From the sequence record OQ411014.1: 64,000 nucleotides of DNA. The stretch is one strand, 5' to 3'. Position 1 is the stretch's first letter; every line of letters begins with the position of its first letter. A model generated the notes under the pieces. It ran no database searches, had not been told where the DNA came from, and was given only the letters and a program-made list of their open reading frames with translations. The translations under genes were made by a program, and so were the position numbers. Below are positions 5,571-56,647 of the stretch, piece by piece. The DNA is from Escherichia phage EJP2.

Positions 5571-5604
5571 TTGATGTATTTATGATTGAGACAACCAGAA
5601 AAAA

Positions 5605-5615
5605 TGTGATATAAT
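5605..5615 (+). promoter_or_regulatory. Early-type promoter, extended -10 box TGTGATATAAT
   Basis: Exact TGTGATATAAT with TTGAGA about 18 nt upstream; about 50 nt before the 5669 start. Confidence 0.6.
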
Positions 5616-5668
5616 AGAGTGGTAGGACACGGATAGTCCTCTGAGATGTAAAACATGGAGACAATATA

Positions 5669-7568: not shown

Positions 7569-9713
7569 ATGCTTACAATCAAGAATATTACAATGAGAAA
7601 CTTTTTCTCCTTTGGGAATGCACCACAGACTGTAGTACTGGATAGTACTGATATATCCTTAGTTCTGGGTCAGAACAATGATGTACTTCTCGATGGAGCA
7701 GACAATTCCGGTCGTCGTAATGGGGTGGGTAAATCTGCCCTCATTCAAGGCATCGTATATGGTCTGTATGGTAAAAGTATCGGTAATGATATCAAGATTT
7801 CTAACTTGGTGAATAAAATCAACACTAAGAACTGTGAAGTATTCTTAGAGTTCAGTAAAGATGGTGTTGATTATCGAGTTGAGCGTGGGCGTAGCCCAAC
7901 GTATTTCAACTTCATCACCATGAATCAGGATAAAGCTGATGATGAATCTCGTGGTGAGAAGAAAGATACCCAAGAAGATCTAATTGAAGTTCTTGGTATC
8001 TCGCAACAATTGTTTGAACACATTGTAGTACTGAATGCTAACGTTGAGCCGTTCTTGTCATTGCCTGTTATCAAACAGCGTGATATGATTGAAGAACTTC
8101 TTGGTATTACTCAACTAACCGAGAAAGCTGAACTACTAAAGGACATGCATAAAGAATCGAAACGTCAAGCTGAACAAGAAAAGTTCAAGATTGAAACTAT
8201 TACTGCTTCGAACGAGCGTATCCAGCAGAGTATTTCTATTCTCCAGGATCAAGCCGCTGCGTTTGAGAAAGCTAAGTCTGAAAAGATTGATAGTATCCAA
8301 TCTAAGCTGGTGGATTTTGAGGGAGTTGATTTTGCTAACTTATTTGAAGTTGCGACTAAGAATGAGATGGCTAAACAATGTAATGCAGACAGAGCAGTTC
8401 TTGAAGGTCGAGTGAATACACTTGCTCAGAAATATCAAGACTACGATGCACAGTTAGTTGCAAATAAAGAGTTGATTCAACAAAGCATCCAAGAATTGAA
8501 CACTATTGACATTGTTCAGGAATTGAGTAACCACAATGAATTATCTTCGTGGTTAGAATTGGAGAAGATTCTAAAAGAATCATTGAGTACTAAGAAATTC
8601 AAGGAACAACAGATCAGTACTGCTGAACGTAACTTGAATATGCTAAAAAGTACTTTAGCAAAAGAAGAAAGTTCACTCCAAGATGTTCTTGATAACAAAT
8701 GTTCTCTATGTAAGGGTAATCTAGACCATGATGAAAATCATAAAACTCTAAAAGAGAAAGTACTAAGTTCGATTCAATCACTAAAGGAAGAGATTTCAGT
8801 TGTGGAATTGCAGATTAGTGCAACCGTAGCAGAAATTGATGCTTTGGAGATATTTGACTTGCCAGCTAAACCAGTTACAGTGTATCCTACATTGTCTGGT
8901 GCACAACTTCATGAACATAAACTAGCTGAATTAGTAAAACAGTTAGATGAAGTACAGGTCAATATCTATGAAGAAGAGTTACAGAATTCATATGCTAAGT
9001 TAGCAGAGACACCAGTACTGGAAGTACTAGATTGGTATAGTGTTCAAGAAGTTACTGAATTGAATTTCATGTTCGATGGACTAAAGTCTGATTTAGAACG
9101 AGAAATGAAGTCTGAGAATCACTTCGTATCTCAAATTGAGACACTAAAAACTACATCTCTACAAGCTGTATCGTATGATGAGTTCAATGAGTTCGATAAG
9201 TTGGCTAATCACCAAGAATTCTTGGCTAAATTGCTAATCAATAAGGACTCTTATGTTCGTAAACGTATCATTGAACAGAATATCTCGTTCTTGAATACAC
9301 GTTTACAGTACTATATCGATGCTGTTGGTTCATCTCATCAGGTAGTATTCATGAATGACCTAAGTGTTGATATTACATTGAATGACCAGACCTATGACTT
9401 CAAACAATTGTCTCGTGGTGAGCGTACTAGGGTTAACATTGCGTTATCCTTAGCATTCCGTGATACCTATGAGTCTCTATACCAAGCAATTAACCTCATT
9501 TGTATTGATGAGATGATTGATGTTGGTCTTGATAGTTCTGGTGTAATGAAAACGTGGACAATATTCCAAGATCTTGCAGCTATTCGTAACAAGAACGTAT
9601 TTGTCATCTCTCATAGAGAGGAATTACTCAGTAAAACTGACAAGATACTCAAGATTACGAAAGAAGCTGGATTTAGTTCAGTTGCTTATACAACATTGGA
9701 TGATTTTTTCTAA
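7569..9713 (+). CDS. Rad50/SbcC-like ATPase (T4 gp46-like)
   Basis: Walker A NGVGKSALIQ at N-terminus, long coiled-coil middle, C-terminal signature/Walker B region (LSRGERTRVNIALSLA ... LICIDEMID). Confidence 0.8.
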   Translation: MLTIKNITMRNFFSFGNAPQTVVLDSTDISLVLGQNNDVLLDGADNSGRRNGVGKSALIQGIVYGLYGKSIGNDIKISNLVNKINTKNCEVFLEFSKDGVDYRVERGRSPTYFNFITMNQDKADDESRGEKKDTQEDLIEVLGISQQLFEHIVVLNANVEPFLSLPVIKQRDMIEELLGITQLTEKAELLKDMHKESKRQAEQEKFKIETITASNERIQQSISILQDQAAAFEKAKSEKIDSIQSKLVDFEGVDFANLFEVATKNEMAKQCNADRAVLEGRVNTLAQKYQDYDAQLVANKELIQQSIQELNTIDIVQELSNHNELSSWLELEKILKESLSTKKFKEQQISTAERNLNMLKSTLAKEESSLQDVLDNKCSLCKGNLDHDENHKTLKEKVLSSIQSLKEEISVVELQISATVAEIDALEIFDLPAKPVTVYPTLSGAQLHEHKLAELVKQLDEVQVNIYEEELQNSYAKLAETPVLEVLDWYSVQEVTELNFMFDGLKSDLEREMKSENHFVSQIETLKTTSLQAVSYDEFNEFDKLANHQEFLAKLLINKDSYVRKRIIEQNISFLNTRLQYYIDAVGSSHQVVFMNDLSVDITLNDQTYDFKQLSRGERTRVNIALSLAFRDTYESLYQAINLICIDEMIDVGLDSSGVMKTWTIFQDLAAIRNKNVFVISHREELLSKTDKILKITKEAGFSSVAYTTLDDFF

Positions 9714-9718
9714 CAGAA

Positions 9719-9746
9719 AGGGAGCTTTATGCTCCCTTTTTTATTA
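9719..9746. terminator. Bidirectional hairpin terminator between convergent genes
   Basis: GGGAGCTTTATGCTCCC hairpin followed by TTTTTTATT; A-rich on the other side. Confidence 0.6.
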
Positions 9747-10218
9747 ATCTCATATCTAACTTACCTTCCTTGATGAGTGTCCTCGCTTGGTTGGCTCTTT
9801 TCTTAACATTAGTCTCTGGTTCAGTACCTAATGAACTCAGTACTTCACATTGCTGCTTTGCTGGTAGTGCTTTAAACTTCTTCACATCCACTGTAAGAGC
9901 CGTATGGTGAATAACTTGCTCTTCTGGTGGTATATTGTTATGATGCTCTAGATAGTCTGCTAGATTGCGTAGAACTTCGTATAATGGCTTATCAGTCAAG
10001 TGCCTTACACACCTATTAAATGAGTTCTGTACGCGTCCCTCCCAGCCGTTAACCTCATTCTGTAGTACTCCCCTACAGTGCTGGTTATCTTGGTGGTAGT
10101 GGTCTAATACGGGCTTTGTGATGGGTATTTGAAGGATAGGATCAATACCACCTTGTGCCTTTAGTAGTTCCTTACGATATTTTGCTGCATCGTCAGGGTT
10201 TTTAAGTCTTCTTTTCAT
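9727..10218 (-). CDS. Endonuclease VII-like Holliday junction resolvase (T4 gp49-like)
   Basis: 163 aa; LDHYHQDNQHCRGVLQNEVNGWEG matches the endo VII H-N-H core (T4: HLDHDHELNGPKAGKVRGLLCNLCN); similar length and basic C-terminus. Confidence 0.6.
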   Translation of the reverse strand: MKRRLKNPDDAAKYRKELLKAQGGIDPILQIPITKPVLDHYHQDNQHCRGVLQNEVNGWEGRVQNSFNRCVRHLTDKPLYEVLRNLADYLEHHNNIPPEEQVIHHTALTVDVKKFKALPAKQQCEVLSSLGTEPETNVKKRANQARTLIKEGKLDMRLIKKGA

Positions 10219-10263
10219 ATCTACACCTTTTGGACAATGATTCTAGTTACTTTATTTAGTTTA

Positions 10264-10464
10264 AGTACTATCATTGTCATCCACCAGCATTCAGTACTTC
10301 TATTATGCATGTTCTGTGTATACAGGAATCACAAAAGTACTAATGACCTTTCTGAAATCCTTGCAGTACTAAGGATGTCCAAAACTCTTGGAGAATGTAC
10401 TTAGTTGCAGTACATAGAGAAGAGTACTATGCTCACGTAATGAAATTATTTTCGAAAAAGTACT
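10264..10464. repeat. Array of six exact AGTACT boxes (five as AGTACTA, same orientation) in non-coding DNA
   Basis: AGTACT at 10264, 10293, 10336, 10365, 10423 and 10459, plus near-copies TGTACT at 10396 and AGTACA at 10409; spacings 29-58 bp; lies between the endo VII start and an early promoter. Confidence 0.6.
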
Positions 10465-10489
10465 AGAAAAATGAGATGCAAACATAAAA

Positions 10490-10500
10490 TGTGATATAAT
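10490..10500 (+). promoter_or_regulatory. Early-type promoter TGTGATATAAT reading into a roughly 700 nt ORF-poor region
   Basis: Exact box; no convincing protein-coding gene downstream until the terminator at about 11189. Confidence 0.55.
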
Positions 10501-11041
10501 ATAAGTACAAGTTCATAAGGTCAGTTTTTACTGATACAGATTAAACCCAATTCACTCGAAAATGTAGAGGATGGATGAGTAGACTTATGACTACGTAGTG
10601 CAAAAGAAACCCGTTAGGAGATGGCATAGTTTGTACCACCCACGGCAATGTGGCACTTTAAATGAACGCGATAAGCAGACAGACGTTCACTAGATAGACA
10701 TATAAGGCTACCTTACCACACTTGCTAAGGGAGTTCAGTTCAGAACTTGTTTTGAGCTTGAACAGCATTAAGATTCGATTGTATGGATTTTAATGTATGC
10801 GTACTAAGACTACGACCGTTGCACATGACCGTGATAGAGAGAAACAGAGCAACCCGCTTTCGTTCTGACTTGTTCAGAAATTCACGATACAATAATTCCG
10901 ATGCTATCAGCGTCAAGCAATATTTCAGATCCTTAATTGGGTCTTTTTTATTGTCTTCATTCCCCTGCGGGGGGATGAAATTGCCTCAACAAATCTCGTC
11001 AAGTATTAAAGTATTAATTAGTTCTTAATAATTAAATTATT

Positions 11042-11104
11042 AAATGAATTGAGATTCATTAGAGTGAAACGAAGTGAACGATAAATGAATTGAAGATTCT
11101 TAGA
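11042..11104. repeat. Imperfect direct repeat (about 23 nt x2) in AT-rich non-coding DNA
   Basis: AAATGAATTGAGATTCATTAGAG at 11042 and AAATGAATTGAAGATTCTTAGAC at 11082; the surrounding sequence is rich in TTAATTA/AATTAAATTATT. Confidence 0.5.
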
Positions 11105-11180
11105 CAATCGAAGATTGGCTAATCAAATACTTTCTCCTAAAGAATGATTCAATAATAATTCTTAATGAATTTTAAATACA

Positions 11181-11206
11181 AAAAAAACCAGCAACAATGT
11201 GCTGGC
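11181..11206 (-). terminator. Hairpin terminator downstream of the minus-strand gene ending at 11206
   Basis: CCAGCACAATGTGCTGG-type hairpin (CCAGCA / TGCTGG) flanked by an A8 run on the plus strand, which is a U-run on the minus strand. Confidence 0.55.
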
Positions 11207-11457
11207 TATTGATTCATTTTCTTCATTCTTTTGTTATACGACTTCACCATTAAATCCCTTGTCTGTACTGGCATATTCAGTAATGACTCATAGGAAGTGT
11301 TCTCTATAGCAACAGCAGCATCCATCAATGACACCTGAATGTCATTGACATTAAACTCCATATCACTTAGAATCTCTTTTATTTCTTCCGGTTCACTAAT
11401 GAGAAGTCTAGTCCGAAAAAATGGGATGGGTCGTATTTTAGTCCAGTCAATTCCCAC
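11206..11457 (-). CDS. Small hypothetical protein (83 aa); start uncertain
   Basis: ORF overlaps the 3' end of the upstream gene in another frame; could start at the internal Met near 11361. Confidence 0.3.
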   Translation of the reverse strand: MGIDWTKIRPIPFFRTRLLISEPEEIKEILSDMEFNVNDIQVSLMDAAVAIENTSYESLLNMPVQTRDLMVKSYNKRMKKMNQ

Positions 11458-12245
11458 TGATGATTACAGTTACTACATTCAACATCCATAGTATGACTGA
11501 TACCTACATCAAATACACTATCAGACTTTTCACTAATGATTTTGAGATCATTCTTGTTCAAAGTACCAAGCCATTCAGAAATAAATTCTGGTTCAGTTAC
11601 TTCTTCATCATTAGGAGTGACTATCTTCGCAATACTACTGCAAATCATATCATAGTTCAGTTGAGTCATTTTCTCAAAAATGTCACTGAAAATTTCCATT
11701 CTTTCTTTCTCTTCCAAATCAGCACTCATATCAATAACACGAGAACGACTTTGTTGAGCAAACATACGCTCACCAAAAGCAGAATGCTCTTCCCATGTAT
11801 GTGGTCTAAAGTATACTGTTAGTCCATTTTCCATTAGTACTACAGGCTCTTCAGTAAATGAAGTAGTAGTATTGAGTAGATAGTTCAAATCACGACTAAA
11901 TCCACCCACATGTTCACACTCTGGACATGTAACATTGATATCATATGATTCATCTTTAGTAGCTAATTTAATAGCAATAAGTAGTTGCTCTACGTCGTTT
12001 ACATAGAGTTTAGAAGCATCAAGTACTGAAGGGACACAGTTCTCAATTACTTTAGCAATGGCATCACCACCAATTAGTGCATCAGCAGTATTAAGTAGAA
12101 TTTCATCACGTGCAGAACGAGCACATACACCACACTTAGTATTACTTACTACACCTTCAGGGTACTTGATTACATCGTTTGAAACTAGTTTAGTGAACAG
12201 TACTTCAATTTTACTGTACTGTGACAAAGGGTTCATCTTGCTCAT
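11379..12245 (-). CDS. Hypothetical protein with three Cys clusters (possible zinc-binding structural/assembly protein)
   Basis: 288 aa; CGVCARSA, CPECEH and CSNCNH motifs; transcribed divergently from the tape-measure-like gene. Confidence 0.55.
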   Translation of the reverse strand: MSKMNPLSQYSKIEVLFTKLVSNDVIKYPEGVVSNTKCGVCARSARDEILLNTADALIGGDAIAKVIENCVPSVLDASKLYVNDVEQLLIAIKLATKDESYDINVTCPECEHVGGFSRDLNYLLNTTTSFTEEPVVLMENGLTVYFRPHTWEEHSAFGERMFAQQSRSRVIDMSADLEEKERMEIFSDIFEKMTQLNYDMICSSIAKIVTPNDEEVTEPEFISEWLGTLNKNDLKIISEKSDSVFDVGISHTMDVECSNCNHQWELTGLKYDPSHFFGLDFSLVNRKK

Positions 12246-55890: not shown

Positions 55891-55910
55891 ATTGAGACAG
55901 ATTTACATAA

Positions 55911-55921
55911 TGTGATATAAT
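55911..55921 (+). promoter_or_regulatory. Early-type promoter TGTGATATAAT
   Basis: Exact box immediately upstream of the AGGAG RBS of the nuclease gene. Confidence 0.55.
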
Positions 55922-55933
55922 AGGAGTACAAGG

Positions 55934-56647
55934 ATGTACATACCACCAATCGTAGAACGATTCACTTATGCAGGTTACGAGAGAATAGAAGGCGGCCCAG
56001 AAGGTCGCCTTTATTCAACTCCAAGTGGTAATCTTCCTTCAGTAACTACAATATTATCTGCAACTGATAATAATGAAGGATTGAAGCAGTGGCGGGAATT
56101 CGTTGGAAACGAAAAAGCAGATGCAATCTGTTTGGAAGCAACAACAATTGGTACGTTTATGCACGAAAATCTGGAGAACCGATTGATTGGTAAACCTGAT
56201 CATGAAGGTGGAATGCCAGTACGAGTACTAGCTCGTAGAATGGCAGATGTTATTCAGAATGAAGCATGGCCTCATATAAATGAGGTATGGGGACAAGAAG
56301 TACCGTTGTACTATGAAGGATTATGGGCTGGCACTACTGACTTGGTAGGAGTTCACAATGGACTACCTACAATTATGGATTACAAAAATTCACGTAAAGA
56401 AAAGAAATGGAAACAGATTGAGAACTATCGTATGCAGCTTGCAGCTTATGCTCTTGCTCATAACTATCAGTTCGGTACGGATATAAATAGAGGCGTGATT
56501 TTTATTTGTGTTCGAAAAGATCCAAACAATCCAACATATCAAGAGTTCGTTGTTGAAGGAGATGACTTCAAAGAGGCTTGTAATATGTGGATTGAACGAG
56601 TTGAACAATATTATACTTTACGCGGAGAAATACAACATGGGAACTAG
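55934..56647 (+). CDS. PD-(D/E)xK-family nuclease (possible recombination exonuclease)
   Basis: GTTDLVGVHNGLPTIMDYKNSRK and YRMQLAAYALA fit the D...(D/E)xK...QxxxY arrangement of RecB/lambda-exo-like nucleases. Confidence 0.5.
   Translation: MYIPPIVERFTYAGYERIEGGPEGRLYSTPSGNLPSVTTILSATDNNEGLKQWREFVGNEKADAICLEATTIGTFMHENLENRLIGKPDHEGGMPVRVLARRMADVIQNEAWPHINEVWGQEVPLYYEGLWAGTTDLVGVHNGLPTIMDYKNSRKEKKWKQIENYRMQLAAYALAHNYQFGTDINRGVIFICVRKDPNNPTYQEFVVEGDDFKEACNMWIERVEQYYTLRGEIQHGN

Follow-up and report, generated by a model that had tools for sequence, protein, structure and literature searches.

A candidate family of large, pseudoknotted non-coding RNAs in Escherichia phage EJP2 and related Rak2-like jumbo phages

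The locus and its conserved, predicted transcription unit

The 64,000-nt stretch of Escherichia phage EJP2 DNA analyzed here (record OQ411014.1; the whole stretch is referred to as the window) comes from a Rak2-like jumbo myovirus that carries a T4-like set of replication and recombination genes. We focused on the approx. 1-kb interval between its endonuclease VII (EndoVII) and baseplate-hub genes, where positions 10472-11125 of the plus strand appear to form a gene for a large non-coding RNA. The closest sequenced relative is Erwinia phage Hallingskeid, and further matches were found in Asteriusvirus (121Q, PBECO4), Mimasvirus (GAP32), Eneladusvirus (BF), phage CBB, Salmonella phages 7t3 and Munch, and two Xanthomonas phages. 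The features of the locus are as follows:

7569-9713, plus strand: gp46/SbcC-like gene, left of the region
9727-10218, minus strand: EndoVII gene, start codon at 10218
10219-10470, no strand assigned: AGTACT-rich spacer from the EndoVII start codon to the RNA promoter, with six AGTACT and two further GTAC sites
10472-10500, plus strand: promoter, i.e., TGAGATG (10472-78), a 13-nt gap and the extended -10 element TGATATAAT (10492-10500), with TATAAT at 10495-10500
10507-11125, plus strand: predicted RNA, long form of approx. 620 nt, from the profile, alignments, covariation and fold energy
11186-11207, both strands: terminator hairpin separating the RNA gene from the genes convergent on it (minus-strand small open reading frame and hub)
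11206-12245, minus strand: small open reading frame (ORF) and baseplate-hub gene, right of the region and convergent on the RNA gene

The family-wide profile matched 10473-11131 (nhmmer, E = 1e-141); conservation starts exactly at the promoter and extends to approx. 11125, and in many relatives blastn aligned just this non-coding stretch and not the flanking genes. Among aligned positions, identity was higher in the RNA than in the flanking genes for Hallingskeid (93% vs. 77-79%), PBECO4 (84% vs. 74-76%) and GAP32 (81% vs. 70-73%). Of the features that a preliminary description of this locus had grouped into one island, the unit from the promoter to 11125, including a GC hairpin and direct repeats, was thus conserved in the alignment across related phages, while the spacer with the AGTACT boxes was not. 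Neither blastn nor the profile search found a second copy within the 64-kb window.

The absence of a credible protein gene, as proposed in the same description, was borne out by the alignments. An 81-amino-acid ORF (10783-11028) exists in the window and is broken by a 4-nt insertion in the closest relative; indels are frequent, are not multiples of three and break all reading frames, and no ORF is shared among the homologs of the element in these alignments. PGAP and phage annotators either pass over the element or predict spurious small ORFs on it. Among automatically annotated genomes, several (Hallingskeid, L001 4030-4849; 7t3, PHA46, E9.1, JP4 and others) carry three to seven "hypothetical protein" ORFs on it, often on the wrong strand, whereas other records leave a 0.6-0.8-kb gap empty, and the UE-S1 record labels part of the element "repeat_region".

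A promoter had been claimed at 10490, and TGTGATATAAT is present at 10490-10500 as an extended -10 element (TGnTATAAT) with an upstream hexamer at 10471-76 (score of 10 out of 12 with the TG). The upstream element TGAGATG, approx. 17 nt before TATAAT, fits the family consensus TGRRAYR. TATAAT and the T upstream of it were invariant, the G of the TG was at least 90% conserved (32 copies), and the promoter as a whole was conserved in every copy that includes upstream sequence. The promoter matches the sigma-70-type "TGAAACG" class of Rak2-like phages, i.e., TGRRAYR approx. 13 nt upstream of an extended -10. We assign the promoter to this class, which is found in phage CBB mainly ahead of DNA-synthesis genes (PMC5259590), and not to an "early" class, as had been done initially. 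Transcription is predicted from the sequence to start near A10507; our literature search found no transcriptome of any Rak2-like phage.

Approximately nine further sites in the window carry the same promoter class ahead of ordinary genes. Those at 55893-55937, 5587-5622, 32947-81, 39149-86, 28827-61, 24871-902, 62423-49 and 49437-68 match the first approx. 40 positions of the RNA profile. The promoter at 55893 precedes a 237-amino-acid ORF (55934-56647) with a good ribosome-binding site (RBS), and 55891-56507, considered as a second ORF-less copy, was rejected since it holds this ORF behind a promoter of the same class.

At the right end of the region, a terminator had been placed at 11189, where the hairpin 11186-11207 can serve as a terminator on both strands. 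It is the stronger terminator on the minus strand, there being no U-run after it on the plus strand; it is kept in syntenic copies and is labelled as a terminator in the UE-S1 and G17 records. Downstream of the hub gene lies an 83-amino-acid ORF (11206-11457, minus strand), which, when read from its GTG start, shares 79 nt with the hub ORF (11379-12245). Its true start is probably internal, judging from relatives in which a 58-69-amino-acid protein is annotated at this place.

Structure of the predicted RNA

The structure was evaluated on 32 copies, with the curated structure counted on a MAFFT alignment. Of the 69 pairs predicted by RNAalifold, 44 showed compensatory double changes, and a covariation scan without an energy model first revealed the long-range helices, including two central pseudoknots. 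The curated structure comprises 108 pairs in 21 helices with four pseudoknots, and 66 of the 108 pairs showed changes on both sides. Of the alignment cells, 90.2% were paired, as compared to 37-41% when partners were slid by 1-3 columns. The covariation score of 0.406 exceeded both that of shuffled alignments (0.147; none of 500 reached the observed value) and that of the slid controls (0.055-0.085); because the sequences are related by descent, the shuffles overstate significance and the slid-partner control is the safer comparison. The window copy folds with a minimum free energy of -158.3 kcal/mol (z = -4.8 for the plus strand vs. z = -2.7 for the minus strand), and many conserved G-U pairs would become A-C on the opposite strand; these two observations identify the plus strand as the RNA strand. 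Overall, the helices are joined by long, nearly invariant single strands, and the core is fixed, whereas hairpins at the periphery are exchanged, lost or relocated from copy to copy. The parts of the RNA, all on the plus strand, are:

10513-10594: 5' domain, with P1, a 3-bp stem, P2 and P3
10513-19/10584-90: P1, a pseudoknot between the leader and the loop of the 3-bp stem 10579-81/10592-94
10520-25/10530-35: P2 hairpin
10547-49/10572-74 plus 10555-57/10567-69: P3 hairpin with conserved loop GAAAAUGUA
10597-10715: second domain, closing helix 10597-601/10653-57
10611-14/10642-45: helix bearing a swappable hairpin, 10617-24/10636-41, with an invariant 11-nt loop
10648-50/10699-701: tertiary pairs
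10663-67/10685-89 and 10703-07/10711-15: second-domain hairpins
10733-10893: central domain, beginning with the variable hairpin 10733-62
10765-71/10790-96 plus 10773-76/10785-88: central hairpin, whose loop 10778-84 pairs with 10887-93 (pseudoknot)
10800-03/10811-14: hairpin of the central domain
10818-22/10849-53: pseudoknot, 3' strand within the loop of hairpin 10837-41/10857-61
10830-34/10882-86: helix closing the three-way junction of the central domain
10863-68/10874-79: hairpin of the central domain
10927-10950: internal hairpin with U-run, resembling an intrinsic terminator
10956-10979: GC hairpin, UUCAUU-CCCC-UGC-GGGGGG-AUGAA, followed by the conserved single strand CAACAAAUCUCGUCA
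11042-11122: 3' domain, with direct repeats and two hairpins
11054-60/11084-90: 3'-domain hairpin around the conserved loop GAAACGAAGUGA
11100-09/11113-22: terminal hairpin, with seven of eight pairs changed on both sides

The helices of the 5' domain were 88-100% paired. For P1, the leader and loop of the same copy formed 6.85 bp on average, as compared to 4.26 ± 0.15 bp for mismatched combinations, and at least eight compensatory versions of this helix were found. In the second domain, two copies have a UUCG tetraloop in place of the swappable hairpin, and six have an unrelated hairpin there; the tertiary pair 10650/10699 (alignment columns 270/322) is G-C in 22 copies and A-U in 10, and is broken in none. 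Both pseudoknots of the central domain were well maintained, i.e., 10778-84/10887-93 was 94.6% paired with five of seven pairs changed on both sides, and 10818-22/10849-53 was 100% paired with three of five pairs changed on both sides. The latter took the place of a 3-bp GUU/GAC helix, which was dropped. Similarly, the first long-range closing helix proposed by RNAalifold (5' UUGAC/3' GUCAG) was replaced by the better supported leader-loop helix P1.

The hairpin with U-run at 10927-10950, missed in the preliminary description along with the conservation and the RNA structure of the element, was 98% paired where present, with five of six pairs compensatory, and is absent in 11-12 of the 32 copies. 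Judging from this sequence, it may give rise to a short form of approx. 440 nt beside a long form of 620-700 nt. The GC hairpin that had been claimed near 10960 was located (CCCCTGCGGGGGG at 10962-10974) and is nearly invariant in all copies, including the bacterial ones. The direct repeats, AAATGAATTGA(G/A)(A)GATTC.TTAGA, were also found, at 11042-11063 and 11083-11104, the second starting one base later than first reported. The arms around the GAAACGAAGUGA loop formed a duplex of -8.9 kcal/mol when taken from the same copy, as compared to -3.6 ± 0.3 kcal/mol when mismatched. The U-run hairpin, the GC hairpin and the two repeats all belong to the structure of the RNA.

Among the peripheral elements, a hairpin of approx. 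30 nt, UUUUGUAC-AAUAUAGAUCC-GUCCAAAA, behaves as a movable module (alignment columns 385-425 and 560-595; e.g., L031, L021, L006 and L015). It follows UAAGGGAG in 21 of 56 copies, lies inside the hairpin after AACCCGC in seven, and is present at both places in two, including an E. coli island copy. At the site of the AAUAUAGAUCC-loop module, another hairpin (10733-62) is present in the window copy.

Copies, carriers and comparison with known RNA classes

Searches with conserved words and the profile yielded approx. 114 copies, 84 of them near full length and 56 non-redundant at 96% identity, in Rak2-like jumbo phages (Asteriusvirus, Mimasvirus, Eneladusvirus and relatives), metagenomes and Enterobacterales chromosomes; the promoter accompanies the RNA in every copy. 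In total, 61 jumbo-phage records carry copies. Each jumbo-phage genome has three to five diverged paralogs, which are dispersed, occupy orthologous positions across genera and all lie on the main coding strand (e.g., at 90.3, 192.7 and 326.7 kb in 121Q, and near 30, 175, 258 and 335 kb in BF and the Erwinia phages). The paralogs have diverged from one another by 20-30%, with the core kept. We found no conserved protein neighbor in the phages, where paralogs adjoin a sigma factor, a methyltransferase, an ADP-ribosylglycohydrolase, or the EndoVII and hub genes. In the window and every syntenic copy, as well as in at least five chromosomal islands, the RNA is followed by a convergent gene.

Bacterial carriers include Escherichia coli (2 of 5426 complete genomes), Citrobacter, Serratia, Enterobacter, Silvania, Buttiauxella and other Enterobacteriaceae. 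In the islands, the RNA lies between an integrase of serine or tyrosine type and a convergent S24/cI-type repressor, beyond which a cro-like HTH_35 protein, a 286-amino-acid protein without a recognized domain, an LprI-like protein and a resolvase are encoded. The island copies are single and retain the promoter type and all core helices. Members of this group are L015 7844-17743 (E. coli LR-29-1, between ffs and ybaA), L043, L045, L048-L052 and L054; the E. coli island additionally carries defence-like mSLOG-DUF4326, DUF488 and DuOB genes and has an IS3 element inside its integrase gene. No phage homolog of the 286-amino-acid island protein was found. A host origin of the RNA was rejected, as it has no similarity to E. 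coli core genes and both matching E. coli genomes hold the same island next to ffs. A plasmid replicon was likewise rejected, with no match among 72,556 plasmids.

Comparison with Rfam 15 (4227 models, including GOLLD, ROOL, OLE, RNase P, group I and II introns, transfer-messenger RNA [tmRNA], 6S and small ribozymes) gave no hit in the window at the gathering threshold, and only chance-level eukaryotic hits over 10150-11300 at E values up to 10. When 15 phage and bacterial loci with copies were searched, Rfam identified only the host signal recognition particle RNA and STnc450, both outside the element. ARAGORN found no tRNA or tmRNA gene in the window; tRNA genes were present in 2 of 34 loci with copies, more than 8 kb from the element. 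We found no description of this RNA in the literature on Asteriusvirus and Rak2-like phages.

GOLLD and ROOL are large "ornate" RNAs of phages and prophages that form homo-oligomeric particles of RNA only and are often located beside tRNA genes. The RNA described here resembles them in its size class of 0.5-0.8 kb, its carriage by phages, its many helices and pseudoknots, its highly conserved junctions, and the absence of an associated protein gene or coding capacity (properties of GOLLD and ROOL partly after PMC12286853 and PMC7567579). It differs in that it has no Rfam sequence or structure match to either, is not beside tRNA genes, occurs in jumbo myoviruses of Enterobacterales and Xanthomonas rather than in Lactobacillales and rumen organisms, and has three to five diverged paralogs per genome with their own promoters as well as island copies. 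The family is apparently undescribed; it is best classed with GOLLD and ROOL among the ornate phage RNAs and is a member of neither.

Several other RNAs share part of these properties. OLE RNA (approx. 600 nt, extremophilic Firmicutes) is similar in length and complexity and also has long invariant stretches between covarying helices. OLE is, however, chromosomal and single-copy and works with dedicated Oap proteins encoded alongside (partly after PMC9723947), whereas the present RNA has no conserved partner gene and no Rfam match. In the lytic phages PA5oct (PMC7318152) and ICP1 (PMC7567579), RNA-seq has revealed abundant ORF-less transcripts of 0.2-0.8 kb; the ICP1 RNA of approx. 800 nt and PA5oct ncRNA001-004 are comparable to our element in that they come from stretches of 0.3-1 kb without ORFs in the genomes of large virulent phages, and PA5oct is itself distantly related to the Rak2-like phages. 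Conversely, the present RNA has a conserved structure, which was not reported for those transcripts, and no homology to the PA5oct ncRNA001 and ncRNA002 loci was detected by profile or motif.

RNase P RNA, group I introns and tmRNA share with our element a build with multiple pseudoknots and exchangeable peripheral hairpins, which in our element include a UUCG tetraloop in place of a whole arm; unlike these, the element gave no match to covariance models or ARAGORN and is not inside a gene. RNase-P-like and group-I-like strings seen by eye were rejected in the absence of a covariance-model match. A hammerhead ribozyme (core CUGAUGA ... GAAA) was also considered for 10574-10597, which reads GAUGAG, a 3-bp stem with a G-C closing pair, and GAA. 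This look-alike, CAGAUGAG-stem-GAA, was rejected as it varies at core positions, with GUUGAG and CAAUGAG among its variants and GCA, GUA, GAU or GUU replacing GAA.

Readings of the element and their implications

Taken together, these data favor a reading in which 10472-11125 is a self-contained gene with its own promoter that specifies a large, compactly folded, stand-alone non-coding RNA acting in trans, to which we assign a probability of roughly 0.7. The promoter-driven non-coding RNA that the preliminary description had listed as one option is the one retained here, as the promoter, the approx. 620 nt after it, the GC hairpin and the repeats make up one conserved, covarying RNA gene. Under this reading, host RNA polymerase would start near 10507 in the phase when the DNA-metabolism genes with the same promoter are expressed; some transcripts would end at the internal U-run hairpin (approx. 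440 nt) and others would reach approx. 11125-11205 (approx. 620-700 nt). The RNA would act through its three-dimensional fold, as a ribozyme, a scaffold binding protein or RNA, or a self-assembling particle, and neither through DNA sites nor as the leader of a neighboring gene. Copies in islands would provide the island with this activity or use it to hinder jumbo phages that infect the cell.

A number of points weigh against this reading. Neither a partner protein nor a target was found, and the start site, both 3' ends and the timing of expression are predictions for all members of the family. The structure was in part derived from the same sequences that were used to score it. The helix 10900-04/10910-14 was poorly supported, being 33-63% paired depending on the register. 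The GC hairpin is paired and never covaries; its changes are one-sided only, so that covariation neither supports nor contradicts it. Finally, P1 and the 3-bp stem that encloses one of its strands both covary and would be sterically tight if formed simultaneously; the two may be alternatives, or P1 may be intermolecular.

Among the alternatives, an unlikely one is that each copy is a replication origin of the T4 oriF/oriG or ColE1 RNA II type, with the 3' part of the transcript hybridized to an AT-rich unwinding region and priming the leading strand, and with the islands being replicated by the phage replisome. The element resembles those origins in its promoter, which may be of the middle type, in a predicted transcript that would run into an AT-rich stretch and, as for T4-like genomes, in copies dispersed around the genome (three to five in genomes of 350 kb; near 30, 175, 258 and 335 kb in BF and Erwinia phages, and at 90, 193 and 327 kb in 121Q). 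Beyond a G6 run (10969-74), GC content is only 20% over 10990-11069, an order reminiscent of the G-run and unwinding region of R-loop origins. In addition, the promoter class is that found before DNA-synthesis genes (PMC5259590), the phage has T4-like replication and recombination genes, and a copy on an island would suit a satellite. On the other hand, those origins have a much simpler and less conserved fold. The AT-rich stretch, approx. 480 nt downstream of the predicted start site, is followed by conserved RNA hairpins, i.e., by covarying structure unlike a simple hybrid, and this continuation of elaborate structure would argue against a simple R-loop origin. We know of no R-loop origin that requires four pseudoknots and approx. 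20 conserved helices. Moreover, the islands showed no satellite-type replication or packaging module in the 8-24 kb examined, and the element occurs in no plasmid of the collection searched.

It is improbable that the RNA acts in cis, either by modifying the transcribing polymerase (processive antitermination, as for HK022 put) or by regulating expression as a 5' leader, with transcription passing the internal U-run hairpin. The order of promoter, structured RNA and intrinsic-terminator-like hairpin within one conserved unit would fit such a role; several paralogs have co-oriented next genes beginning no more than 100-200 nt away (121Q gp416 and gp168; BF_0349), and some copies end directly at an RBS and ATG. 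Known put and EAR elements are, however, five to ten times smaller than this RNA, and the internal terminator is missing in approx. one third of the copies. Co-orientation is expected by default, because approx. 94% of genes in these phages share one strand (in CBB, 34 of 554 ORFs are on the minus strand; PMC5259590). The most widely conserved copy, at the EndoVII/hub locus, runs up to a terminator that serves both directions, with convergent genes on the other side, and in five islands the RNA converges on the cI gene; the consistently convergent next gene at these places argues against a leader or antiterminator role.

Similarly improbable is the reading at the level of DNA, namely that AGTACT(A) boxes are sites through which a protein of the phage or the host regulates the divergent promoters of EndoVII and the RNA, or that they mark an origin. 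All six AGTACT boxes that had been listed within 10264-10464 were found (10264, 10293, 10336, 10365, 10423 and 10459), five of them as AGTACTA. They form the densest such cluster in the window (six in 201 nt; scan-corrected P of approx. 0.006-0.03) and lie between two divergent transcription units, and the 310 nt upstream of family members contain 4.0 AGTACT sites per kb, as compared to a clade background of 2.5 per kb (all related phage loci, L001-L119). AGTACT is, however, the commonest hexamer of the window, with 166 sites as compared to 22.4 ± 4.7 in dinucleotide shuffles (GTAC occurs 464 times). These sites are mostly within genes and in all three frames, with frame 0, in which they encode Ser-Thr, the most frequent. 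The motif is therefore likely to have a genome-wide rather than a local role, and its abundance in the window and the clade makes six sites in 201 nt less striking than they appear. In addition, the spacing of the boxes (29, 43, 29, 58 and 36 nt) is unphased, the 250-nt spacer had no homolog among 50,697 phage records, it is absent or replaced (short or different) in the alignments with Hallingskeid, PBECO4, GAP32 and BF, and never more than four AGTACT sites were found upstream of other family copies. We thus treat the array as a lineage-specific spacer, and the proposal of a conserved binding-site array or regulatory hub is not supported. The spacer lies outside the conserved element and probably carries the RBS and 5' region of EndoVII. 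The remainder of the island belongs to the large pseudoknotted RNA family, and the array is incidental to it.

Across the clade, the AGTACT palindrome is approx. 7-fold over-represented, which suggests selection at the DNA level, e.g., for a modification, binding, priming or recombination signal. The window as a whole avoids other palindromes: GCGC is absent (38 expected), GATC occurs 98 times (267 expected), CAGCTG and AAGCTT are each absent (approx. 9-11 expected), and AGGCCT, AGCGCT and CCCGGG also have zero occurrences, a pattern that looks like avoidance of restriction or Dam sites.

Least probable of all is a remnant of a mobile element, i.e., a degenerate group I or II intron or selfish RNA that multiplied in the genome, hopped into islands and is now functionless for the phage: its several copies per genome, its presence in unrelated mobile elements and a large pseudoknotted fold with swappable, intron-like peripheral hairpins would agree with this, but every copy carries an invariant promoter of its own and none is inserted in a gene, the window element being flanked by divergent and convergent genes, for which reason a group I or II intron was rejected, no Rfam intron model matched even at E values up to 10, and the orthologous positions across genera together with 20-30% paralog divergence around a retained core indicate long purifying selection.

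Returning to the stand-alone trans-acting RNA, the finding may matter in several ways. Large, intricately folded RNAs of bacteria and phages are few, and RNase P, group I and II introns, tmRNA, OLE, GOLLD and ROOL each revealed new RNA biochemistry or architecture. The present family is useful in this respect as it is large, rich in pseudoknots and strongly conserved, and occurs in cultured, easily manipulated phages of E. coli, Salmonella, Cronobacter, Serratia and Erwinia (121Q, PBECO4, GAP32, BF), so that the role of ornate phage RNAs can be addressed in a Gram-negative system amenable to genetics. With several diverged paralogs in each genome, specialization or hetero-assembly can also be tested. 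The family also fills annotation gaps of 0.6-0.8 kb, left blank or filled with spurious small ORFs, in more than 60 published jumbo-phage genomes. Its sharing with host chromosomal islands hints at a role in conflict between phage and host or phage and island. More tentatively, and as a proposal we consider doubtful, the family could represent a new class of ribozyme or RNA-only particle, formed from one or several paralogs and needed in the DNA-metabolism phase, of which small integrative islands captured a copy, with a promoter of the same phage type, as a decoy or hijacker against these phages. If true, such islands would constitute an RNA-based layer of phage-host conflict without a described counterpart.

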